A stretch of DNA of 64,000 bases from a virus (lineage: Duplodnaviria; Heunggongvirae; Uroviricota; Caudoviricetes), in the IMG/VR virus record IMGVR_UViG_3300013288_000004, positions 191,360-255,359 of that record. The stretch is one strand, 5' to 3'. Positions within the stretch are counted from its first letter, which is position 1. Every line of letters begins with the position of its first letter. This document shows, piece after piece, positions 25,909 to 42,032 of the stretch. A program made the position numbers and the translations under genes. The notes below the pieces were generated by a model. The model searched no databases. It saw only the letters and a list, made by a program, of their open reading frames with translations, and was not told the origin of the DNA.

Positions 25909-26976
25909 TTATAATCTATTCAAGAAATACAACACTAGGTCCATATGATCCTCGAATAACTTATTTCTCATGTTTCTAATTTCCGCGAAAGAAAACCAAT
26001 GCGCGTCAGAGGCATCGTCCAAACCGCTGACACGCGGGAGGTCATTATTGTCATCCAGCTTAATGCAATAAGCACTGGTAATGGTTCGTCCATTCTTAAT
26101 GAAGACTCTCCCACGTAATGAACGATCAGGATGGTCAAAAATTTTATGATCTACAATTGATCCTCTTAATACTTTTTCTGGAACCTTTATGCCAGTCTCT
26201 TCTCTGAGTTCCCTAATCATGGCATCTTCAAGAGTTTCGTCGGGGTGGACGTGCCCGCCCGGAATAGCCCAGAGAGATTTTCCCGGATTGTTCTTACGTT
26301 TAATTAAAAGAACATGGCCAGATTGTACTACCACCGCATCAACAGTAATGAAATTTAATGAGTATTCTTTAGGGAATGACAAAAACTTCTTGTCATAATT
26401 TACTGCGTCCTCATATTCAGAGCATAATGGATGAAATTCTGCTTTTGTTTGAAACTTCTCTAAGAAGTGATAAACGCCAACAGGCACAGCAGCTTTGACG
26501 AATTGCAGATGGCCAGAGAAATATAATTCTCTAACTTTAGTCGCATCAATATGCTTACCACCAGTAGAATCTAAAATCGCTGTTTCTATATAGTCCCACT
26601 GTTTAAAGTAGTTTATATACGATTCCGTCTTTTGATCTTTCTTTGCACCAAGCAGACAAACCGACTTATCACCGTTTGTAATTTCGTCAACACTGTTCAA
26701 AAGAGAAGCTGCCCAATTGGCGTTATTGTACAATTGGTCTTCAACATAGGTGAAAATAATTTTGTCACATTCTTCACCAGTTAGACATGACTGTATCATT
26801 TCAATACGTTCATTGACTGTGAATGGTGATTTTATTGTTCGTGGAGAATTTGCAGAACCAAGAACTATGATAAGTTTATGGCTTGTTTTTAGCGCATCTC
26901 GTACTGTAACTAAATGGCCTAAATGAAATGGTTGGAACCTTCCGATGTATACAGCATAATTATATGTATAAGGCAT
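25909..26976 (-). CDS. nadM: Bifunctional NMN adenylyltransferase / ADP-ribose pyrophosphatase (NadM-Nudix)
   Basis: YIGRFQPFHLGH; DATKVRE; Nudix box PGGHVHPDETLEDAMIRELREETGI. Confidence 0.95.
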   Translation of the reverse strand: MPYTYNYAVYIGRFQPFHLGHLVTVRDALKTSHKLIIVLGSANSPRTIKSPFTVNERIEMIQSCLTGEECDKIIFTYVEDQLYNNANWAASLLNSVDEITNGDKSVCLLGAKKDQKTESYINYFKQWDYIETAILDSTGGKHIDATKVRELYFSGHLQFVKAAVPVGVYHFLEKFQTKAEFHPLCSEYEDAVNYDKKFLSFPKEYSLNFITVDAVVVQSGHVLLIKRKNNPGKSLWAIPGGHVHPDETLEDAMIRELREETGIKVPEKVLRGSIVDHKIFDHPDRSLRGRVFIKNGRTITSAYCIKLDDNNDLPRVSGLDDASDAHWFSFAEIRNMRNKLFEDHMDLVLYFLNRL

Positions 26977-29267: not shown

Positions 29268-29536
29268 CGTTTTTGCTTCCTGTTCGCTAATGATCTTACA
29301 TCATTCATATCCGCTTTTATATTTGTAGCGGCCTTATTATGGTTGGCTTGTAATTTTTTAAGACTATTTGACAACATGGATATTATTTTATCCTGTTCCT
29401 TGATAGATTTTTCCATTTGCGCAATAGTCTTATCTTGAGAATCTACATGTTTCTCAAGTTTAGAAATCTGTGACAACGCTCTATATAAATGGCTGTCCAG
29501 TTTCTTTATGTCTTCTGTAATTTTCTCTATTGACAT
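29264..29536 (-). CDS. Coiled-coil hypothetical protein
   Basis: Heptad-rich 90 aa ORF. Confidence 0.65.
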   Translation of the reverse strand: MSIEKITEDIKKLDSHLYRALSQISKLEKHVDSQDKTIAQMEKSIKEQDKIISMLSNSLKKLQANHNKAATNIKADMNDVRSLANRKQKR

Positions 29537-30069
29537 AAATTCCTCATATTATTAATAGCTAAGACCATACCATTTACTTTGTTAATTGAATTCTTAGTTG
29601 GTATATTAACATTAAATACATCAAAAACCTCATCAAGATATGTACAATTAAATAATAAATGCGAAGCGTGCAGCAAGTCGATATATTTATTAATTTTTAC
29701 ATTCATGTCCATTCTAGAAAACATATCTTCAAGTAATGGAATGGTAAACGATTCTGCGGCAGTACAAATAAATGTTATATCATCAAATACTACATCTTCG
29801 TCTTGTCTGAACAAGTAATTTACAAACGATTCAACCACCTCTTCAATAGGTGACCCATATTCTTCGATATCATTTTGTGTAAAGCCGTGATATTTTTCTG
29901 TACCGTTTATATGGACATCTTTTACGATATAAAAGAATTCATCTTTATTTTTTTCTAACGTCAAAAAATCTATCTCTAAGGCAGAGATAGATACAATGTC
30001 GATGCCGCTTACATTTTTATTTTTTGGCAATCCATTAGAGTCTATTGATATAACTACATATTTTTTCAT
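29527..30069 (-). CDS. DnaQ/DEDD exonuclease-like protein with degenerate active site
   Basis: VVISIDSNGL..IVSISAL..YHGFTQ..PIEEVVESF resembles the epsilon fold, but the ExoI DxE is not intact. Confidence 0.55.
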   Translation of the reverse strand: MKKYVVISIDSNGLPKNKNVSGIDIVSISALEIDFLTLEKNKDEFFYIVKDVHINGTEKYHGFTQNDIEEYGSPIEEVVESFVNYLFRQDEDVVFDDITFICTAAESFTIPLLEDMFSRMDMNVKINKYIDLLHASHLLFNCTYLDEVFDVFNVNIPTKNSINKVNGMVLAINNMRNLCQ

Positions 30070-30906: not shown

Positions 30907-31578
30907 TTAGTTAGGCAGCCCAAATAAATTCAAAAACTGCACGTTCCCGAGTGACGTTAATTTAGCAGTTTGCGTATTATCCTTGGATCTACCTGTTTGT
31001 GGAGAAATATCAGTACCGTCTAATATAGCTCTTCTCAATTTCATCTCATGTTTTATATCTTTACCCACATTATACAACCATAGTTCCTCAAAAGTAGAAT
31101 CTTCTGCTTCTCTTTTGTAAACTAAAAATGCTCCGGGTATCGATCTGACATTTCCTTGATAATTTTGATCTTGCGATTCTTCACCAAATCCACCCTCGTC
31201 ATCTTCGAATTCATCGTCTTCGCCGTCTAGAGAGTCATCCTCAAATTCATCAGAAAATTCATCGTCACTTCCAAACTGTTCGTCATCATCTGATAAATCA
31301 TCCTCTAATCCATCATCGTCAAAATCATCAGAGAATTCATCATCTTCCATATCGGAATCAAAATCATCAGAGAATTCTGAATCACCATCATCCATCATCT
31401 CTTGCTCATCTGGATCTGGTCCAGAAGCTGCTGGTTCAAATTCGTCAGAACTCCCAATATCTGGATCATATGAATCCGCATCTTCGTCATCAATTTCCAG
31501 ATCATAATCATCATAATCATCATCTGGTGTATCAATCTCTTCCATACGATAAATCTTTAATTCTCTTAGTAATTTCAT
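30907..31578 (-). CDS. Protein with a long acidic N-terminal tract and a folded C-domain
   Basis: About 130 aa D/E tract, then YQGNVRSIPGAFLVYKR..EELWLYN..GNVQFL. Confidence 0.75.
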   Translation of the reverse strand: MKLLRELKIYRMEEIDTPDDDYDDYDLEIDDEDADSYDPDIGSSDEFEPAASGPDPDEQEMMDDGDSEFSDDFDSDMEDDEFSDDFDDDGLEDDLSDDDEQFGSDDEFSDEFEDDSLDGEDDEFEDDEGGFGEESQDQNYQGNVRSIPGAFLVYKREAEDSTFEELWLYNVGKDIKHEMKLRRAILDGTDISPQTGRSKDNTQTAKLTSLGNVQFLNLFGLPN

Positions 31579-32342: not shown

Positions 32343-32652
32343 TTTCGGAATTTTTCGTATTTAAAAGTGCTTTACCTTTTTGTGTTAAATTTCCTTTATC
32401 GTCTATAAATCCATTATAAGACAATACTTTTTCTCCCATGTTATTAATTGTATAACCAGCCGGATTATATTTTATTAACTGCATTCTCTTTAAATATGCA
32501 GTTGCATTGATCAATTTTTCACTGGAATTTATATATTCTAATGCCAATTCTGGGGTTGGGCTTGAAAAAATCAATAATAAACTGTACGCTTGATGCATAC
32601 CTAATTTAATAGAATTTACATTTTCATTAATCGAGTCTAATATAGTAAACAT
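32335..32652 (-). CDS. hypothetical protein
   Basis: Coupled to the DnaE-like fragment. Confidence 0.65.
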   Translation of the reverse strand: MFTILDSINENVNSIKLGMHQAYSLLLIFSSPTPELALEYINSSEKLINATAYLKRMQLIKYNPAGYTINNMGEKVLSYNGFIDDKGNLTQKGKALLNTKNSEIK

Positions 32653-33218
32653 TATATATCTGCGCCTAGTTTTATCAAATTCATCTGCAAAATAATATTA
32701 AGTGCGTATGCAATAGCATGGGATTTTCTAAGATCACTCTCATCTATTTTATCATACAACACTTTTCTAACCTCATGCTTTGATTTTATATATTTATCAA
32801 TTAATATAGTTTTGTTTGGACGAATAAGAGCTAATATATCTGCCAAATCTTCAATTGATTGTGGTTTGCATTTTTCAATTAGATCAAAATGTTTTTTGAT
32901 ATGAAATAATTTTTCGACTACTGATTTATAGTTAAGTAATGTCCAATCCGGTTTCATGTTTAAAACTGTCAGCACCTCATCTCTACTTTCGAATGATTTC
33001 AAAAGATTAAGATGTAATAAATCTATTTTTAGATAACCGTATTCTTGTGCTTGTTGGTATGGTATAGCTGACAAATGAGAGTCCATATCTGTGGGAATAG
33101 TCTGTAAATAAATGCCAACTGGATGAGGTTTAAGAACACCATTTTCAACCATGGAGGCGCGAATCATTTTCAAATTACTTAGATCTGTACGGGGGTCAAT
33201 GTCAATGTCGATATCCAT
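32652..33218 (-). CDS. Family-C DNA polymerase (DnaE-like) catalytic fragment B
   Basis: DIDID, HPVGIY, GYLKIDLLHL, KPQSIEDLADILALIRP, KSHAIAYA. Confidence 0.82.
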   Translation of the reverse strand: MDIDIDIDPRTDLSNLKMIRASMVENGVLKPHPVGIYLQTIPTDMDSHLSAIPYQQAQEYGYLKIDLLHLNLLKSFESRDEVLTVLNMKPDWTLLNYKSVVEKLFHIKKHFDLIEKCKPQSIEDLADILALIRPNKTILIDKYIKSKHEVRKVLYDKIDESDLRKSHAIAYALNIILQMNLIKLGADI

Positions 33219-33853
33219 ATTGTGTACTCCTCATAAATTTCTTTCAGTTTATCTATATTATCAATATCATCTATCTCTTTCAATTTAGATTCGAGTTTTT
33301 GTTGGCTTCTCAACAACAAAAGATAATACATCTCTTTCTGCTTTATGAAGTATTCTACAACATTCTCAACACTTTCTCCAGTTATGTCCATATAACTTTT
33401 TATAAAATGACAATCTTGAAGGTTGTTAGTATTCTGGTATTTTTCTGCTTCTTTATATCTTTCATCCATCAAATGTATGTTGGTTAAATATGAACAAATA
33501 TCTATATCCAAACGCTTAGAATAATAATATTTAACCAATTTTATTACGTTATCTCTATAATGGTCTATATTCGTTGTATCAACTGAAGAGTATCTGACCA
33601 GTTCTGGAATTTCCGAATCTAATTGTTCAAGTTTACTTTGTAATTCTTGCGGACTAGTACAAGATGATCTAGTACATTTACGTAAATCATCTCTCCATTT
33701 CAACCATTTATGTTGTTTTAAAACACCAGACCCTACTTGTAATATCCAATCACTATTCTGCAATAACCTCATTTTATATGAAATCGGACTAATCCAATCC
33801 CTATCCTCCGTAAATTTTGTCGGAGATGTAATAATGTTTGTTATCTTTTTCAT
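33179..33853 (-). CDS. Tail fibre assembly chaperone-like protein
   Basis: RLLQNSDW..WLKWRDDLR resembles the R..LL..SDW..W..YRQ.LRD motif. Confidence 0.55.
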   Translation of the reverse strand: MKKITNIITSPTKFTEDRDWISPISYKMRLLQNSDWILQVGSGVLKQHKWLKWRDDLRKCTRSSCTSPQELQSKLEQLDSEIPELVRYSSVDTTNIDHYRDNVIKLVKYYYSKRLDIDICSYLTNIHLMDERYKEAEKYQNTNNLQDCHFIKSYMDITGESVENVVEYFIKQKEMYYLLLLRSQQKLESKLKEIDDIDNIDKLKEIYEEYTIWISTLTLTPVQI

Positions 33854-33859
33854 TTTTGA

Positions 33860-34465
33860 TTATGGTGGAGGATTCAATGGACCGGGGGTATTACCCTTCA
33901 TACCAATAATAAGATAGTTTGCGCATCCAGATACCGCAGTAGGTACTAAATTTTCTCTATAACGCATGGTTACTTTACCATCGCTAGATGTAAAACACCA
34001 AATTAAACTTGCATAAACAGGTACATTAGCTGCTGATACAATCCACGCACATTCTGAATATGGGAATACATAACCACTTTCGCTAACTGGTTGTGGTAAA
34101 TATTCACCATTACTTATGATTCCCGAATTTGCTGCATAATCTCCAGTCAAACTCAATGGTAGCCATTCTGTTCCATCCCAAAAAAATGGTCTATCTTGCG
34201 TACTGTTCAACCATAATTGTCCCTCTAGGGGATTAGAAAGCAAATCATCAATAGCGACTGACAAATCTGGATTACCAATATTATCAGGATCTTCCGGGCA
34301 CGCAAAATGTTCAAGCAGATGAAGCATATTTTCATTCATCTCTTGGCCATACCGCAATCTAGTTCTACCGAACAATGTTACATCATGATCAGTATTAATA
34401 TCTTTTGGTACCAATGTTATTGGCGTCTGCCCAGAATCTGTAAATTTTACATTATAGTCAGTCAT
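33860..34465 (-). CDS. Virion fibre/baseplate-associated protein, paralog 1
   Basis: LFGRTRLRYGQEMNENMLHLLEHFA..GQLWLNS..WDGTEW, shared with the two upstream genes. Confidence 0.75.
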   Translation of the reverse strand: MTDYNVKFTDSGQTPITLVPKDINTDHDVTLFGRTRLRYGQEMNENMLHLLEHFACPEDPDNIGNPDLSVAIDDLLSNPLEGQLWLNSTQDRPFFWDGTEWLPLSLTGDYAANSGIISNGEYLPQPVSESGYVFPYSECAWIVSAANVPVYASLIWCFTSSDGKVTMRYRENLVPTAVSGCANYLIIGMKGNTPGPLNPPP

Positions 34466-34632
34466 TTTACTTCATCAAACCCTTCTAATTTTGCGCCTAA
34501 CATTTTTTCTGAAAACTCTGACTTATCTATTTCATAGACGTCATAACCTTTTGCTTCAGCATTTTCTTTATTTATAGGATTTATAGCAGACCCTATAATA
34601 ATATTATCAGATTTTCTAACTAGTATATACAT
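34462..34632 (-). CDS. Small hypothetical protein (56 aa, not in track)
   Basis: MYILVRKSDNIIIG...LEGFDEVK; its TGA overlaps the next ATG. Confidence 0.65.
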   Translation of the reverse strand: MYILVRKSDNIIIGSAINPINKENAEAKGYDVYEIDKSEFSEKMLGAKLEGFDEVK

Positions 34633-34633
34633 A

Positions 34634-36049
34634 TTATGCCGTGTACTCCAAATACCAATCGTCGGTCACAGTCGTCTGTAATCCGGACACCGTGTCGGTC
34701 ACAGTAACAGATGCTGTACCATAGGCCGATGCATTATTGGCTGTCGGACATGTTCGTGATATGGCATCTTGAACAGTATAACTAGTGCCACTGCCACTAA
34801 ATCCAACGTTACCCACCAACATTCCAGTTTGCCCAGTAATGCTATTACTCCACGAATATGAGTAACTTCCAGAACCTCCAGACACTGTTATTGAGTTACC
34901 GCAGGAAACTTGTGCTGTTTGTGGATCTTCTGGATCGCATGGGAATGGTGACCAAGTATGGAAACCATTACATTGTCCGGGTATAGTAAATTGAACCGAT
35001 GGTGGTAATGGCGATGAAGATGGTGTTATTGTCACAGCCGGTGTGGTAGTCACGTCAGGTGTTGTGGTCACAGCCGGTGTGGTAGTCACGTCAGGTGTTG
35101 GCGTCACTGTTGGCGTCACTGTTGGCGTCACTGCTGGCGTTTCTGTTGGATATGGAGTAGCACCTACAGACAGAGTTGGATTTGGGGTCTCATCTGGTGT
35201 AGACGCCGGGGTCGCACTCAATGATATCGTAGGGGTGTTACTCGGTGTAATATTTGGCGGCGACACATCAGTTGGGGTTACCGTTGGGGTTACCGTTGGG
35301 GTCGCGGTAATAGATGGTGTTACCGTTGGGGTTACTGTATTAGACGGTGTAGTTCCTATAGAAGTTGAAGGTGTAGGTGTAATGGAAATACTCGGTGTAG
35401 GAGTTGGTGTCAAGCTTGGCGGTGGTGCATATGCGCATCCAATACCACCATTGTTAATATTTCCTTTGATTCCTATTATGAGATAATTGGCAAACATAGA
35501 TCCAACATCAGAAGAACCGGTTATGCGATATTGTGATGTCACTACTGCGTTAGTATCAGTGGTACACACATAATAATCAAAAGGACCATACATTGCTACA
35601 TGTGAAACCGCCCAAATGCACTCGGACAAAGAATAAGTATATCCTGTTATAGGATGCACTGGTAATGGTAATGTGTCGCCATCAAAAATAAATCCCCAAT
35701 TTGCGCATACATTATTTTTAGTGGATAGCGGTTCCCAGATATCCAAAGAAGAATTCCATGAATAGAAAGTCTTATTAGATTTGTTATACCATAGCTGACC
35801 CTGTGTCGGGTTCTTCAAAACATTTTCGGTAGTCTGATCCAAGTCTGGTACAACTGGATCTGATCCAGTTAATTCATATGCGGCAAAATTTTCTAATAAT
35901 CTTAGAAGACTTTCATTTAACTGTTCGCCATATTCAAGAAAACCTCTACCGAACAGATTTACATCTAATGCATAATCCACTTCTGTCTCAGAATCTACAG
36001 GTATATAAGATTTATTTACATCTGTGAATTTAATATCATACGTACTCAT
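34634..36049 (-). CDS. Virion fibre-like protein, paralog 2, with Thr/Pro linker
   Basis: Same N-domain, about 140 aa TPTV-rich linker, Cys-containing beta C-domain. Confidence 0.8.
   Translation of the reverse strand: MSTYDIKFTDVNKSYIPVDSETEVDYALDVNLFGRGFLEYGEQLNESLLRLLENFAAYELTGSDPVVPDLDQTTENVLKNPTQGQLWYNKSNKTFYSWNSSLDIWEPLSTKNNVCANWGFIFDGDTLPLPVHPITGYTYSLSECIWAVSHVAMYGPFDYYVCTTDTNAVVTSQYRITGSSDVGSMFANYLIIGIKGNINNGGIGCAYAPPPSLTPTPTPSISITPTPSTSIGTTPSNTVTPTVTPSITATPTVTPTVTPTDVSPPNITPSNTPTISLSATPASTPDETPNPTLSVGATPYPTETPAVTPTVTPTVTPTPDVTTTPAVTTTPDVTTTPAVTITPSSSPLPPSVQFTIPGQCNGFHTWSPFPCDPEDPQTAQVSCGNSITVSGGSGSYSYSWSNSITGQTGMLVGNVGFSGSGTSYTVQDAISRTCPTANNASAYGTASVTVTDTVSGLQTTVTDDWYLEYTA
35031..35133. 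repeat. Coding tandem repeats (34 bp x2 at 36 bp spacing; 12 bp x2.75)
   Basis: gtcacagccggtgtggtagtcacgtcaggtgttg twice, then gcgtcactgttg repeats. Confidence 0.85.
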
Positions 36050-36052
36050 ATA

Positions 36053-37513
36053 TTATGCACCGCCCCATTCAAAAGTTGTTGTATCTGTATCTGTCGCAGT
36101 ATTACCCATAGAATCTTGAACAGTAACAGTGAACAAGGCATTCAATATCTTAGATCCCCCCGGACAAGTTCCAGCTATACAAGCAACACTTCTTATCTCA
36201 AACGCTCCTGTTATATTGGAACCAGAGACACTACATGATGATGTAGTCACAGCAAATTCTGGTCCCGTTGCACCAGTTAGAGATAGAGAATGACTAACGA
36301 TGGAATAAGGCGCAATTCCGCCAGTGATAGGGCCGGAATATGACCCGGTGACAACCCTCTTATACTGTGTGATATCACAACCGTAGCCAGCCTGTACACA
36401 CTGTTCTAAAGAACCGTTTATACTAGCAACAACATTTAATGGTGCCACTGAACTCTTAGTCGGAGTTGGGGTTACTGTTGGAGTTCTTGTTGGTGTAGGT
36501 GTTACAGTTCTTGTTGGTGTTACAGATGGAGTTCTTGTTGGTGTAACAGAAACCGATGGTACCGGCGATCTCGTAGGTGTAGGAGTTACCGTTCTAGTTG
36601 GTGTTCTAGTTGGAGTCACAGACGGAGTCCTAGTTGGAGTTCTTGTTACGGATGGCGAAGCTCCTACTGATAAAGAAGGTTGTATCGATTCTGTCGGTGA
36701 TGGGGTTACGGTTGGTGTGGCTGTCAATGATGGGGTCGCTGTTACAGATGGTGATGCTCCATTTGTTGGAGTCACCGATGGTGTAATCGTTGGAGTCACC
36801 GATGGTGTTGTACCCACAGAAGTAGATGGTGTTGGGGTAACAGTAGATGTAATAGATGGAGTTGGAGTAGGAGTTGAGGGTGGAACCACCGCACAATCTA
36901 TTGTGCCCAAATCGTTATTATTACGAATGCCTAACACCATGTAATTCGCGCACGCATTTGTCAATCCGCTACCAGTTAATAATCTATATTGAGATGTTAC
37001 CAGACCATCATTATCTACTGTACAAATAAAATAATCTACATCATCAGGCATATAAAATGGTGACACGAAAAATACACACTCATCCGCTGTAAATTGATAA
37101 CCTGTTACAGAACTTACTGGGAGTGGTATATTCTGACCATGTGAGATGACTCCAGAATTACCCGCCACATCGTCCATTCTTGATAGTGGCACCCATTTCG
37201 TACCATCCCAAAAATATAAACGAGTGTTTGTGGAATTGTACCAAAATTGTCCATATACCGGACGTTCCAACAATTCTTCGTGGGCCGTATCAAAATCTGG
37301 GTTGCCGGGATTGTCAGCATCTTCAGGGCATGCAAAATTTTCAAGAATGTGAACGACATTCTCGTTAAAGATTTTTCCATATTCTAATCTAGATTTACCC
37401 GGAAAAGCTATATCAGCTTCATCAGTAATTAGGGCATTTTTCCCTACTGTTATAGTTCCATTAGCTGGATCTGTAAATCTCACAACATATGCATTTACAT
37501 TACAACTTGCCAT
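36053..37513 (-). CDS. Virion fibre-like protein, paralog 3, with Thr/Pro linker
   Basis: Same N-domain, TPTRTPSV-rich linker, Cys-containing C-domain. Confidence 0.8.
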   Translation of the reverse strand: MASCNVNAYVVRFTDPANGTITVGKNALITDEADIAFPGKSRLEYGKIFNENVVHILENFACPEDADNPGNPDFDTAHEELLERPVYGQFWYNSTNTRLYFWDGTKWVPLSRMDDVAGNSGVISHGQNIPLPVSSVTGYQFTADECVFFVSPFYMPDDVDYFICTVDNDGLVTSQYRLLTGSGLTNACANYMVLGIRNNNDLGTIDCAVVPPSTPTPTPSITSTVTPTPSTSVGTTPSVTPTITPSVTPTNGASPSVTATPSLTATPTVTPSPTESIQPSLSVGASPSVTRTPTRTPSVTPTRTPTRTVTPTPTRSPVPSVSVTPTRTPSVTPTRTVTPTPTRTPTVTPTPTKSSVAPLNVVASINGSLEQCVQAGYGCDITQYKRVVTGSYSGPITGGIAPYSIVSHSLSLTGATGPEFAVTTSSCSVSGSNITGAFEIRSVACIAGTCPGGSKILNALFTVTVQDSMGNTATDTDTTTFEWGGA

Positions 37514-37535
37514 TTGATACCCTTCATAATGTTCT

Positions 37536-37595
37536 TATTTATGCAAATCAAAGCTGTCGATTTACAATTATATTGAATATATGAAGATATTTATA
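37536..37595 (-). promoter_or_regulatory. Late promoters upstream of the fibre gene run
   Basis: TATAAATA at 37588-37595 and CATAAATA at 37536-37543. Confidence 0.55.
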
Positions 37596-38262
37596 TGTTG
37601 TGAGTTTTCGCCATAGCTAAAATAGTTTTTGTGACTTCTTTATTATTCCTCATTTTCTCTAGCCATTTGTTCCTATCAATTATCGAATCGCATATCACTT
37701 TCTCTTCTCTTGTTAGTTTTTTATTATAAACATAATCAAAAGCGCTAGAAAATAATAGATACCATGGTGATAATGCTCTAGAATGGATGAATTTTGTTAT
37801 CTCATCAAAATTTAAATATAATAAAACTTCATTAGGTTTACAACCTATTATATTAGATAAATTAACAATTGTTTTCATGGAAATCCGAAATTGCTTTTCG
37901 GCAGGGACGGTATTGTCAAAATGGATTAGATAATCTATATAGACTTCATCCATATACCAATTGTTTGGTAGTAATTTAAGATCTGAGCAAAATTTAATAT
38001 AATGCTGGGGGTCTGGTATACCATTCTTTCTAACAAAAGAAAGCAGACTACTAAAAATAGTATAGTATCTGGACTGTATGAAAGCTTTGTAATTTGGTTC
38101 TCTGTGACCGCACGAGGATCTCCAATATTTGTAAAGATTCCAAATGGCTAAACCATCCGCAGACCTAGATTCCTTGTCTCTTTCTAAAAATTTACAAGAG
38201 TGATTAATCCTCTCATCCGAAGATTTATAAACATAATCACAATAAACACATTTTTCTGTCAT
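37591..38262 (-). CDS. hypothetical protein with N-terminal C2HC motif
   Basis: CVYC..H.C start; conserved-looking SPWYLL. Confidence 0.7.
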   Translation of the reverse strand: MTEKCVYCDYVYKSSDERINHSCKFLERDKESRSADGLAIWNLYKYWRSSCGHREPNYKAFIQSRYYTIFSSLLSFVRKNGIPDPQHYIKFCSDLKLLPNNWYMDEVYIDYLIHFDNTVPAEKQFRISMKTIVNLSNIIGCKPNEVLLYLNFDEITKFIHSRALSPWYLLFSSAFDYVYNKKLTREEKVICDSIIDRNKWLEKMRNNKEVTKTILAMAKTHNI

Positions 38263-38699
38263 TTTAACTTTTTGATCTGTTCGTTGTCATAGCCTAACTC
38301 TTCCGCCATTGAAAGTAAATCGTCCAGTTTTATTGATTTCTCATATAACAAAGCTTCTTTATGAGTACAATCATAATATTCTTGGATAAGTTGTGAGCGT
38401 AATGTGGAACGTTCTTGCTTTTTCCTTTTATTCCAAGAGTACATTTTCTTTGACGTTGAGCAACACAGTAAAAGCCGTGTTAATAGTTTCTTCTCTTTGT
38501 GTAAAGAGAAGACGAATGGATTTAACACTGAGTTTAATCTAGTTATTTGTTTGGTGTCTTTAGTGCCAGACAGCCACCGCATAATGACAAGCGGCTGCAA
38601 TGTTTTTTCTTGATCCGGTGTTAATTCTGAAAAATAATCCACATCAAAATTATCAATACGTTTCAACACTTCAAATATGTCTAATTTATTGTCACTCAT
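38259..38699 (-). CDS. Clamp-loader small subunit (gp62-like)
   Basis: DIFEVL..PLVIMRWLS..IQEYYDCTHKEALLY; near the gp44-like gene. Confidence 0.55.
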   Translation of the reverse strand: MSDNKLDIFEVLKRIDNFDVDYFSELTPDQEKTLQPLVIMRWLSGTKDTKQITRLNSVLNPFVFSLHKEKKLLTRLLLCCSTSKKMYSWNKRKKQERSTLRSQLIQEYYDCTHKEALLYEKSIKLDDLLSMAEELGYDNEQIKKLK

Positions 38700-38991
38700 A
38701 TAATTTTAATTTCTTGTTGCAAAATTTACACAAAATTACACCATCGTCCAATTGTACCAATTGATCATCTGGGTGTATACAAGTCTCAGTCATCTCTTTT
38801 CTGATTTCGTGTATCTCATCAAAGAATGGTTGTTTTTGTAACTGAATTTCTAAAATCTGGTCCTCCAGCGGTTTCAATTTATTGTCTATAATATCTTTTA
38901 ACTTCTTTTCTCTGCGTTTCCATGCCAGTACGTCGGCTTTGTCAAAACTCGCTCTTATTTTCTTAATAATTTCTTCCATTTCATATTCCAT
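38692..38991 (-). CDS. hypothetical protein (coiled coil + C-H-CxxC)
   Basis: CIHP..CKFC. Confidence 0.65.
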   Translation of the reverse strand: MEYEMEEIIKKIRASFDKADVLAWKRREKKLKDIIDNKLKPLEDQILEIQLQKQPFFDEIHEIRKEMTETCIHPDDQLVQLDDGVILCKFCNKKLKLYE

Positions 38992-39937
38992 GTAATTTGA
39001 TTAACATCGCCATAAAGTTTATTTCTTTGTCAGTAACCAAAGAATGTTTATACATGCTGTCAGCTATGGTAACAATACCGGCCTTCCATTTGTTAACATC
39101 CTTAAACTTAGTAACATCTTCAAGATACTCATAGAAAAACCTATAGTATTCTAGGAAGTCATCATCCGATATATTACCGGATACTGAATTTCTGATAGAA
39201 TCCCAATTAGCTTTTTCCTGACCAATTGCTTCCAGAAGTTCTACCTTATCTCCCAAGGATTTGTCATCGTCTATACTAGCAACCACCAATTTACCATCGG
39301 ACACACTAGCATGGACACTATCTATAAATTTACGAAAATCTGGGTATGTTTTATTGAGAATATCTTCAATTATATTGATGTCGTCATCGGTCTCACACGG
39401 TATTCCATTCTCTGTCAACATATGAATAACTCTAACGCACATTTCGCCACGATCTAACGCTTTGAACTCCATGGCCTCGCATCTGGATTTAACTTCTTTC
39501 ATTATCTTATGTGGATAATTACACGAAAGTATAAATGTAACATTGTCAGCACGATCTTCCATCATCGTTCTCAATGTCGCTTGCGCATTTGGTGACAAGT
39601 AATCACATTCGTCTATGTATACTATCTTATACCCAGATTCAGATATTGGAGCTAATTTAGTAAACTCATCAATCTTAGACCGCATAACATCCACTGAATT
39701 TTCTTTTGAACCGTCGATACGTATATAATCCATATCATCGATATTCAAATAGCTTTTGAGTAAGAATGCTAATGTGGTTTTACCAGTTCCCGGTGGTCCA
39801 TATAAAAACAAGTGCGGCAATGATCCACTTTTTATAAAATCTTGGACTCGTCTTTTAATTGTTTCAGATGGAAAAATATAATCTTCTAGTAGGTGTGGCC
39901 TATATTGCATAGACCATTCTTTCTTCTTCAAGCTCAT
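38981..39937 (-). CDS. 44: Clamp-loader ATPase subunit (gp44/RFC-like)
   Basis: QYRP..LFLYGPPGTGKTT..IDECDYLSPNAQATLR..FILSCNY..SRC. Confidence 0.93.
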   Translation of the reverse strand: MSLKKKEWSMQYRPHLLEDYIFPSETIKRRVQDFIKSGSLPHLFLYGPPGTGKTTLAFLLKSYLNIDDMDYIRIDGSKENSVDVMRSKIDEFTKLAPISESGYKIVYIDECDYLSPNAQATLRTMMEDRADNVTFILSCNYPHKIMKEVKSRCEAMEFKALDRGEMCVRVIHMLTENGIPCETDDDINIIEDILNKTYPDFRKFIDSVHASVSDGKLVVASIDDDKSLGDKVELLEAIGQEKANWDSIRNSVSGNISDDDFLEYYRFFYEYLEDVTKFKDVNKWKAGIVTIADSMYKHSLVTDKEINFMAMLIKLHGI

Positions 39938-39985
39938 GTTGGATTCCTATGATCTTTTGATCATATCACAACATTATCTACCATA

Positions 39986-40753
39986 TCAAGCTTCTTGGAT
40001 AAATTTAGCCATTGCTTTAGATTTTACAGAATTCTGATGATTATCTTCAATTATTGAAACAGTGTTAGCGCGTTTCTTTCTTTGTTTTAATACATTATTA
40101 AACGCTATTGTTAGCGCTATGGCGAATGGATCAAAAACAAAAACAATGATCAAGATTAATATAGTTATAGCCTTATCTTGCTCTATCCCGAATACTTCTG
40201 TAATAAAAACTATTGGGCCAATCTTTGCGGATTCTTCAACATTTTTGGTCTTTATTTCTAGTATCTGTTTTTCTACAAAGGGAATATCTGTAGATAGTTG
40301 GGCCAATTCCACTTCAAAAGATTTCATCAATCTTTGTTTTGCTGTAACATAATTGTTACCAACACTTTGAATCTGTTTGTCTATATCCAATTTTCTTTCT
40401 TTATAAGTCTTCAATTGATCTTCAAGAATGATAAGTGTTTCTTGGTCTTGTTGAACAGATATGGTTGTCGTTTGGTGAGCGGACATCAAATAACCAGATA
40501 TACCCATAGAAGTTATAGAAACTAATATAAAGATACTGATGACAAGATAAGTCTTAAGAAATAATGATGTCTCTTTCCAATAGTTATACAAATACGATGT
40601 TATGACTATTTTACCAAGTTCTAACGAACCACCCATAATTAAAACGCTAATAAAAGAGCCAGAGAACAATTTCGCTAACCCTATAACAGAAAAATAGGCA
40701 GCGCTACCAGCCACTGCCATCATAGACAAAAACAACAACACAAGTAGAAACAT
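39986..40753 (-). CDS. Membrane protein with coiled coil
   Basis: Three N-terminal TM helices, a coiled coil, and a C-terminal TM with IVFVFDPFAIAL. Confidence 0.8.
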   Translation of the reverse strand: MFLLVLLFLSMMAVAGSAAYFSVIGLAKLFSGSFISVLIMGGSLELGKIVITSYLYNYWKETSLFLKTYLVISIFILVSITSMGISGYLMSAHQTTTISVQQDQETLIILEDQLKTYKERKLDIDKQIQSVGNNYVTAKQRLMKSFEVELAQLSTDIPFVEKQILEIKTKNVEESAKIGPIVFITEVFGIEQDKAITILILIIVFVFDPFAIALTIAFNNVLKQRKKRANTVSIIEDNHQNSVKSKAMAKFIQEA

Positions 40754-41065
40754 TTACATCGTTTCCGGTTTTTCTTTCGAAACCAAAAGAACTTTGTCAA
40801 TATTAGTCATCCAATAATCTTTTTTATTCATAGTAAGATTATTAGCCCACTGTAACGGTTCAATGAAAATAAAATCACCAACTTCCACATCTTTTACTTC
40901 GGGACCAATGTGTAAAACTTCGCCCCATCTCCCAATTTCCATATCAGATCTCTTATCAATAACACTGAACCCCCAATCGGTTTTATTTTCAAAACCTTTT
41001 TGTGCCGATAATTCCTGAATGAATCTAAACAATATATTTTTCTTAACTGGAGTAATAGACTTCAT
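40754..41065 (-). CDS. GroES-like co-chaperonin
   Basis: ITPVKKNILF..WGEVLHIGPEVKDVEVGDFI. Confidence 0.8.
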   Translation of the reverse strand: MKSITPVKKNILFRFIQELSAQKGFENKTDWGFSVIDKRSDMEIGRWGEVLHIGPEVKDVEVGDFIFIEPLQWANNLTMNKKDYWMTNIDKVLLVSKEKPETM

Positions 41066-41066
41066 T

Positions 41067-41432
41067 TCACTTACCTTTTACTTTTCTATTAAGTTTTTCC
41101 GTAACCTCAGATGCAGATTCTAAATTAGTTAAATCCATTGATAACACCGTTTGTATCTCTGTTTCTGCGTCCACCGGTTTTACATCATTGGTAGCCTTGT
41201 TAGCTCTCTGTTTATCCAGAGCCTTTCTCATGTTTGCTTCGTTAACCTGCTGCTGATGAAACATCTCTCTAACTTTACGCTTAGTAGAGTTCTTTCGCTT
41301 ACGACGACCCTGTATCAAATTTTCTCTGTGTTTAACAGTATCACTTTCTGGAATGTTATTTATTTGTAGGCGAAGTAAGTCAAAATCTACTTTCTCACCT
41401 CGGATTGAATTTACTATTTTTTTATCACTCAT
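41067..41432 (-). CDS. hypothetical protein
   Basis: SIRGEKVDFD start; late promoter upstream. Confidence 0.7.
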   Translation of the reverse strand: MSDKKIVNSIRGEKVDFDLLRLQINNIPESDTVKHRENLIQGRRKRKNSTKRKVREMFHQQQVNEANMRKALDKQRANKATNDVKPVDAETEIQTVLSMDLTNLESASEVTEKLNRKVKGK

Positions 41433-41457
41433 TGATGCGGTGCCCTTTTTGTTTATC

Positions 41458-41465
41458 TATTTATA
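41458..41465 (-). promoter_or_regulatory. T4-type late promoter
   Basis: TATAAATA. Confidence 0.6.
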
Positions 41466-41489
41466 TGCTTCTTAGGCATAAAAAACCTT

Positions 41490-42032
41490 CTATCTAAAAA
41501 ATTCTTTACAATCTATGTCATATTTTATACAATCTACACAATGAAGACCAAATATGAACAAAATATAACTAGCACATGAAGAACCTCTTCCAACTCCCCA
41601 TACTACATTATTTTCTTTGAAATAATCTATTAAGAATAATATCGCACGAAACAAATCGCCCATATTCATGTTATCTATTAACTGAGATTCATATAAAATT
41701 CTTGATATAGCTTTAGAATTATATTCTCTATCGCGTTTCATTCTGTCCAATTTTATTAGACAATAATCCATTATATTAATGTCTAAATATTTTTTAGGTA
41801 TATCCCAATTGGACTCAATATTATTATTACTATATTTAACCTCTAGAGGAATTTTGGATATTAAATTATATTTTTTAATATTCTGTGTAACTTCTTCGGC
41901 AAAACATTTATCAATACATAAACCTTGTAGCATTCTTTCGCATAATTGTTCTTCATTTAGCGAATAATTTCCATCAAACCACAAAGTTTTATCATTTAAT
42001 TTTGTAAACTCATTATGCAAAGGGTGATTCAT
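41490..42032 (-). CDS. Family-C DNA polymerase (DnaE-like) fragment A
   Basis: RILYESQLI..VVWGVGRGSSCASYILFIFGLHCVDCIKYDI..EFF. Confidence 0.82.
   Translation of the reverse strand: MNHPLHNEFTKLNDKTLWFDGNYSLNEEQLCERMLQGLCIDKCFAEEVTQNIKKYNLISKIPLEVKYSNNNIESNWDIPKKYLDINIMDYCLIKLDRMKRDREYNSKAISRILYESQLIDNMNMGDLFRAILFLIDYFKENNVVWGVGRGSSCASYILFIFGLHCVDCIKYDIDCKEFFR

Follow-up and report, generated by a model that had tools for sequence, protein, structure and literature searches.

Can a family-C DNA polymerase be made from two very short proteins whose genes lie kilobases apart? This question is raised by two genes, here called A and B, of an uncultured tailed phage (Caudoviricetes) known from the virus record IMGVR_UViG_3300013288_000004. 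The stretch that was analyzed (the window) has 64,000 nucleotides and corresponds to positions 191360-255359 of this record, which is a complete genome of 306,759 bp with direct terminal repeats; coordinates given below are those of the window unless the record is named. An initial annotation, made from the letters alone, had proposed that a miniature family-C polymerase is split at the palm into fragments of 180 and 188 amino acids (aa), encoded about 8.3 kb from each other, and both open reading frames (ORFs) were found as described, with the motifs that had been quoted for them:

41490-42032, minus strand: gene A, ORF of 180 aa
32652-33218, minus strand: gene B, ORF of 188 aa

The two genes share a strand; A ends at 41490 and B starts at 33218, which leaves a gap of 8,271 nt. 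The C-terminal part of A reads ...WGVGRGSSCASY...DCIKYDIDCKEFFR, while B begins with MDIDIDIDP and has KIDLL, ALIRP, and KSHAIAYA further along.

Our answer to the question is a qualified yes. With a probability of roughly 0.6, A and B together are the split minimal DNA polymerase III (Pol III) alpha of the group 2.2 jumbo phages, whose two chains would dock to give an accessory templated polymerase. An enzyme of this kind is already published: a split minimal Pol III alpha was described for group 2.2 jumbo phages by Iyer et al. (2021, Viruses 13:63, PMC7824862, section 3.4.1, Fig. 3b), where it accompanies a family-B polymerase, where cooperation of the two in the synthesis of one strand or in repair was proposed, and where the mini form was proposed to be an early branch. 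The present pair is a further example of this group 2.2 enzyme (RaK2/121Q/XacN1/PA5oct/Atu_ph07-type). As in that study, the nucleoside triphosphate (NTP)-binding and the Mg/template-binding subdomains are two stand-alone proteins from distant genes, no other Pol III alpha domains occur in the genome, and direct homology links the two proteins to those of RaK2, 121Q, GAP32, XacN1, PA5oct, and Atu_ph07. The setting is also that of the group 2 jumbo phages, with a family-B polymerase, UvsW, a gp32-type single-stranded DNA-binding protein (SSB), an RFC-type clamp loader, and a DnaG-type primase candidate, and we found no difference of kind. What is added here is the position of the cut at Escherichia coli residues 393/400, counts of invariant residues, apparently secondary fusions of the two halves, a proposed correction of the start of B, and a conserved N-terminal domain in A.

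The assignment of both proteins to Pol III alpha was obtained with several databases. Against Pfam, A matches PF07733 (DNA_pol3_alpha) with an E value of 8e-11 and 42.5 bits, the curated cut-off being 23.9, and B matches PF17657 (DNA_pol3_finger) with an E value of 1e-6 and 28.7 bits, the curated cut-off being 22; there is one match of each in the 306,759-bp genome, and no second PF07733 or PF17657 match was found in it. Against PHROG, A falls into phrog_11127 (E 2.8e-38, over 171 positions) and B into phrog_11778 (E 1.1e-58, over 197 positions), both labeled as DNA polymerase, and sequence and profile searches of the PDB with A and B returned Pol III alpha chains only. In the sequence/profile alignment, residues 96-178 of A pair with residues 313-392 of E. 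coli Pol III alpha, the segment GPGRGSGAGS included, and, judged from this pairing, the GRGSS of A is the G[GS] turn with which the Pol-beta-like nucleotidyltransferase fold binds the triphosphate. The structural alignment (see below) places the DIDID of B at E. coli 400-401, the start of the DFDVD strand, with residue 1 of the B model paired to E. coli 400/401, Taq 462, and PolC 972. The motifs are located as follows:

41577-41591, minus strand: GRGSS motif, residues 148-152 of A, equivalent to E. coli R362-G363-S364
33201-33215, minus strand: DIDID, residues 2-6 of B, with the first two catalytic Asp (D2 and D4), from structural alignment and conservation
33021-33029, minus strand: K64-I65-D66 of B, with the third catalytic Asp, equivalent to E. 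coli K553 and D555 (KFD 553-555) in the profile alignment
32817-32822, minus strand: R133-P134 of the ALIRP finger motif of B, equivalent to E. coli ALFRPG (~636-641)
32718-32726, minus strand: K165-S166-H167 of the KSHAIAYA finger motif of B, equivalent to E. coli NKSHSAAYA (~757-765)

A hallmark of family C, the Pol-beta-like palm with its G[GS] turn and three catalytic Asp, is present across A and B taken together.

In the deposited gene call, B is a protein of 171 aa that starts at Met18, so that it lacks the catalytic DxD. This start is very probably wrong, because a GAGGAG motif precedes the ATG at 33218 and because the N-terminus is conserved in the family. No Shine-Dalgarno sequence was found ahead of Met18, the start of the public call. 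The signal in front of Met1 is the following:

33227-33232, minus strand: Shine-Dalgarno GAGGAG of B, 8 nt upstream of the ATG at 33218

Having a Shine-Dalgarno sequence and an ATG of its own, B would therefore be translated independently from Met1. With the Met1 start, B and the upstream ORF have 40 nt in common, a possible reason for the gene caller to have avoided this start.

Conservation was read from two alignments, one with 39 homologues that are 31-68% identical to A and the other with 50 representatives of clusters formed at 50% identity, which are 28-52% identical to B. W145, G146, G148, R149, G150, S151, and S152 are invariant in A (39/39), as are D2, D4, K64, D66, R133, P134, and H167 in B (50/50), where D6, Y171, and A172 are at least 90% conserved. 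These alignments indicate strong constraint on the catalytic residues and on several residues of the fingers. The initial annotation had envisaged a two-chain form of about 370 aa with all three catalytic Asp and had made this proposal dependent on their conservation in homologues, and D2, D4, and D66 proved to be invariant. The chain ends flanking the cut are kept in a similar way: homologues of A stop few residues past EFF[HR], with a single exception among the 39 that carries a tail of ~16 residues, and the 50 representative B proteins begin 0-12 residues ahead of the DxD.

For the structural comparison, AlphaFold2 models of A and B were built singly from the family alignments and searched with Foldseek, followed by a second structural aligner. 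The predicted local distance difference test (pLDDT) values are 91.8 for A and 96.8 for B, and Foldseek lists nothing but Pol III alpha and PolC among the top 11 matches of A and the top 13 of B. For residues 74-180 of A, the superposition is on residues 277-393 of E. coli Pol III alpha (Z 11.4-12.4, root-mean-square deviation [rmsd] 2.2-2.4 Å, 104-106 residues), the best unrelated match reaching only Z 2.6. Residues 1-188 of B superpose on E. coli 400-783 (Z 10.3, rmsd 4.1 Å, 184 residues), as well as on Taq 462-843 and PolC 972-1301, and here the best unrelated match has a Z of 3.1. The superposition on the Pol III alpha palm that had been suggested as a check was thus obtained with each half singly. 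Since A aligns up to residue 393 and B from residue 400, the cut in these models is the short loop at E. coli 393-400, directly before the DFDVD strand that carries D401 and D403, which agrees with the proposed split at the palm between motifs that lie close together in DnaE.

The modeled palm portion of A consists of helices only, and the strands all come from B (residues 2-7, 19-25, 28-37, and 64-69). The split would therefore divide the triphosphate-binding subdomain from the catalytic sheet and leave the sheet itself uncut, and such a subdomain-wise division fits the confident predicted folding of each half alone.

The reduction of the enzyme can be read from the same superpositions. The domain limits used for E. 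coli Pol III alpha are reportedly from Lamers et al. 2006. In B, a stretch of about 14 residues (38-51) replaces roughly residues 433-537 of the E. coli protein (~105 residues, thumb included), and B 70-188 (~119 residues) represents shortened fingers, equivalent to E. coli 558-783. Taken together, the two proteins represent no more than E. coli 277-783, and nothing matches beyond 783; the thumb, clamp-binding, and OB regions are encoded by neither gene. The PHP domain, another hallmark of family C, is missing, as PF02811 has no match in the complete 306,759-bp genome and residues 1-73 of A match no PHP, and neither has the HhH family PF14579 a match in this genome. The earlier statement that PHP, most of the thumb, the clamp-binding region, and the OB domain are absent is borne out by these results. 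Compared with DnaE and PolC of known structure (E. coli 2HNH and 4JOM; Taq 2HPI and 3E0D; G. kaustophilus PolC 3F2B), to which the similarity is at Z 10-12, the phage proteins share the Pol-beta-like palm, the GRGS turn, the DxD with the third Asp, and the ALxRP and KSHxxAYA finger motifs. However, those enzymes are one chain of 900-1400 aa, versus 180 + 188 aa here, and the PHP, the thumb, the distal two-thirds of the fingers, the clamp-binding motif, the HhH, the OB, and the tau-binding parts are missing from the phage pair.

Ahead of its polymerase part, A has a small domain:

41814-42032, minus strand: residues 1-73 of A, small alpha/beta domain, from the alignment and DSSP of the model

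This domain is kept in the family, with L12, D20, G21, and N56 invariant and a motif LWFDG. It lies outside every PDB fold match, all of which span residues 74-180, and an hhalign comparison of A with the DnaE N-terminal fragment aligned 103-182 only, leaving A 1-73 uncovered; some NCBIfam DnaE models reach back, weakly, to about residue 40 of A. A protein atlas search with the 1-73 domain returned its own family and chance-level rows only. The domain may be a partner-docking module.

Similar fragments had been suspected in other jumbo phages, and tblastn identified A in 97 and B in 95 cultured-phage records with the same host spectrum, the carriers being phages of the RaK2, 121Q, GAP32, XacN1, PA5oct, RsoM2USA, and Atu_ph07 types. 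The nearest cultured phage is XacN1, with 37% identity for A and 58% for B. In IMG/VR, at least 592 A loci and at least 591 B loci were found. Regarding the co-occurrence of the two genes, which had been named as a point to check, B is present in 7 of the 8 large contigs found via A, and A in 5 of the 8 found via B; the four records with a completeness of at least 90% each have both halves, as does the genome studied here, the contigs without the partner being fragments that are 54-79% complete. In the relatives examined, A and B are never adjacent, and their spacing ranges from ~4.4 kb to ~180 kb.

Natural fusions of the two halves also exist. A search with B of 1.84 billion representatives yielded one fusion of 375 aa (P0314; L005:1066-2193) that matches B at residues 191-372 and whose residues 102-180 match A (E 2e-9), with a linker of ~10 residues between ...KEFIK and DFDID (190-194). 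Two more fusions of 376 aa (P0390 and P0391) come from other assemblies, giving three metagenome assemblies in all. When compared with DnaE models, the 375-aa protein aligns as a single stretch over the junction, with residues 92-206 on positions 302-417 of TIGR00594. These fusions support A and B as one enzyme, which, from their alignment to DnaE as one stretch, would be made from two genes in the phages with the split form. In a quick maximum-likelihood tree (Shimodaira-Hasegawa-like approximate likelihood ratio test [SH-aLRT] support only, midpoint root), the fused C-terminal half belongs to a clade (support 97) that otherwise contains split forms only, nine in number. As the fused form nests among split forms, the single-chain fusion looks secondary to the split.

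The T4-like replisome setting noted in the initial annotation was recovered in the genome, which carries UvsW, UvsX, a gp32-like SSB, a DnaB-type helicase, and a gp44/gp62-like clamp loader. A family-B polymerase and a primase, which had been listed as genes to look for elsewhere in the genome, are represented by an 870-aa frame with PF00136 and by a primase candidate. The latter, the sole candidate, is a 335-aa ORF on the minus strand at positions 186961-187968 of the record (L167:682-1689), ~3.4 kb before the start of the window, and it adjoins a ClpP-like protease gene. It matches phrog_47 (E 2.5e-26) and, weakly, the DnaG zinc-ribbon PF01807 (E 0.03), and the Toprim/primase families PF13155, PF13662, PF08275, PF01751, PF13362, and PF09250 have no match in the genome, nor has the ORF itself a Pfam match, so the assignment, which comes from PHROGs alone, is that of a very diverged gp61/DnaG-type primase candidate. 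Given this separate candidate, a role of A and B as a primer-maker is less needed.

Gene order was compared with that of cultured relatives. The order A, small ORF, GroES-like gene, and clamp loader is common to the window, XacN1, and 121Q, and the gp61 primase/gp41 helicase genes of RaK2 and PA5oct have B ~1.5 kb upstream of them. This synteny supports a role of A and B in the replisome. In the annotation of XacN1, an epsilon subunit of DNA polymerase III is encoded 2.3 kb from B. The syntenic ORF in the window (29527-30069, minus strand, 180 aa) is 25% identical to it over 75 residues (E 7e-4), has no match to RNase_T PF00929 and no PHROG match, and may encode a very diverged or degenerate DnaQ-like exonuclease. 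With a similarity this weak, an epsilon-type proofreading partner near B was considered and is not established.

How would such a pair work? Of the Pol-beta-like palm, A contributes the half that is helical and binds triphosphate, with its GRGSS, and B the whole catalytic beta-sheet, the three metal-binding Asp, and the shortened fingers. We infer that the two dock non-covalently into one active site, forming an enzyme of ~368 aa, and that this enzyme performs short-patch, poorly processive templated DNA synthesis beside the family-B replicase, within the T4-like replication/recombination machinery. It could serve in primer extension or hand-off, in gap filling, or in repair. If active, A and B would make up a family-C polymerase core smaller than any other known, assembled from two chains, and offer a useful minimal model of Pol III chemistry and of the assembly of a split active site; they would also point to a second replisome polymerase in giant phages of a group that is very large and widespread. 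Taken as a whole, the initial interpretation of a two-chain nucleotidyltransferase is supported, since every point of it that is testable in silico held.

Several observations speak against an accessory templated polymerase. The thumb and about two-thirds of the fingers are missing, so that the grip on primer-template DNA is in doubt, and the substrate could be a deoxynucleoside triphosphate or an NTP, and the synthesis templated or not. Also, the conserved N-terminal domain of A has no explanation in the enzyme model. Finally, searches of the later literature turned up no functional work on the split enzyme, whose genes are listed there by name only.

A more specific proposal, which we put forward tentatively and hold to be rather unlikely, is that a T4-like replisome has, in the split mini Pol III, an obligate second polymerase, a hand-off enzyme for extending RNA primers or for filling the gaps of recombination-dependent replication ahead of the family-B replicase. 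If true, the phage would have a two-polymerase fork, like that of Bacillus subtilis (DnaE/PolC) or of eukaryotes (Pol alpha/delta), and ~370 residues in two chains would suffice for family-C polymerase chemistry. In B. subtilis, as Sanders et al. are said to have found in 2010, DnaE is a second, less processive polymerase that extends RNA primers before the hand-off to PolC. It may serve as a functional analogy for the proposed accessory role; however, B. subtilis DnaE consists of one full-length chain that includes PHP and binds the clamp, and the main replicase here is of family B, not PolC.

Among the alternatives to an accessory templated polymerase, the one that survives best is a nucleotidyltransferase with non-replicative chemistry, such as untemplated tailing, de novo priming, or the making or modification of a small nucleotide or of nucleic-acid ends, for example in a conflict with host defence. 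Enzymes with the Pol-beta fold span many such chemistries, what is left in A and B is a bare Pol-beta-like core without thumb, clamp-binding, or exonuclease parts, and the genome already has a full replisome, polymerase and primase candidate included. Nevertheless, the closest relatives in both sequence and structure are only replicative Pol III alpha and PolC, the Pol III-specific finger motifs ALIRP and KSHAxAYA are invariant, and A and B are both found within replisome gene clusters in distant clades. We therefore consider this alternative to be doubtful, though it deserves to be kept in mind. Much less probable is that A and B form a non-catalytic structural or regulatory subunit of the replisome that has kept the polymerase fold. 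Their extreme reduction would fit such a role, as would the fact that no activity is reported in the literature, but very divergent homologues (~30% identity) share all three metal-binding Asp and the GS motif without exception, the pattern that marks a working active site.

That A and B are joined into one chain by a split intein or by RNA trans-splicing has very little left in its favor. One could cite the shared strand of the two genes and the clean cut at a single point of the fold, and a precedent could be seen in the cyanobacterial intein-split DnaE (Npu/Ssp), a family-C polymerase that is also made from two distant genes. In the cyanobacteria, however, protein trans-splicing restores the full-length enzyme, whereas here there is no intein and the chains stay separate; in addition, the cyanobacterial split is in the fingers, at about residue 775, versus in the palm before the DxD here. 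The family alignments leave no room for an intein, A ending near EFF[HR] and B starting with Met-Asp, and there is no Cys, Ser, or Thr nucleophile after the start of B, which has its own Shine-Dalgarno sequence and ATG. The initial annotation, which had also described the pair as free of inteins, is in this respect confirmed. Moreover, Pfam and PHROG searches show that the DNA between A and B consists of ordinary protein genes, which fill the 8.3 kb and comprise three phrog_15511 paralogues, a protein of phrog_11058, the two subunits of the clamp loader, a membrane protein, and a GroES-like protein, and among relatives the order and the spacing of A and B vary (4 to ~180 kb).

The idea that A and B are functionless, decaying remnants of an intact dnaE, for which one could cite that they are small fragments of a large protein and that the public annotation shortens B further, is barely credible given hundreds of intact copies of constant length with catalytic residues invariant at ~30% identity and the two halves kept together. 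The intein, trans-splicing, and pseudogene explanations were thus rejected on the grounds of the alignments, the translation signals of B, and the pattern of conservation.

Some further features of the neighborhood were recorded along the way. The three phrog_15511 paralogues (33860-37513, minus strand) are arranged in tandem and encode proteins of 201, 471, and 486 aa with a common N-terminal domain; two of the three have long Pro/Thr/Ser-rich linkers and differing C-terminal parts. This trio occupies much of the interval between A and B, and the same place in XacN1 is taken by a larger block of hypothetical proteins. On the other side of B, a 223-aa protein (30907-31578, minus strand) has, over about two-thirds of its length and from near its N-terminus, an extremely acidic repeat region rich in Asp, Glu, Ser, and Phe, after which an ordinary C-terminal domain follows; the protein has no Pfam match. 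At 25909-26976 on the minus strand, a cytidylyltransferase-like domain of the nicotinamide mononucleotide (NMN) adenylyltransferase type is fused to a Nudix domain. This fusion corresponds to the annotated bifunctional NMN adenylyltransferase (NMNAT)/ADP-ribose pyrophosphatase of XacN1, which makes it a phage gene for NAD salvage.

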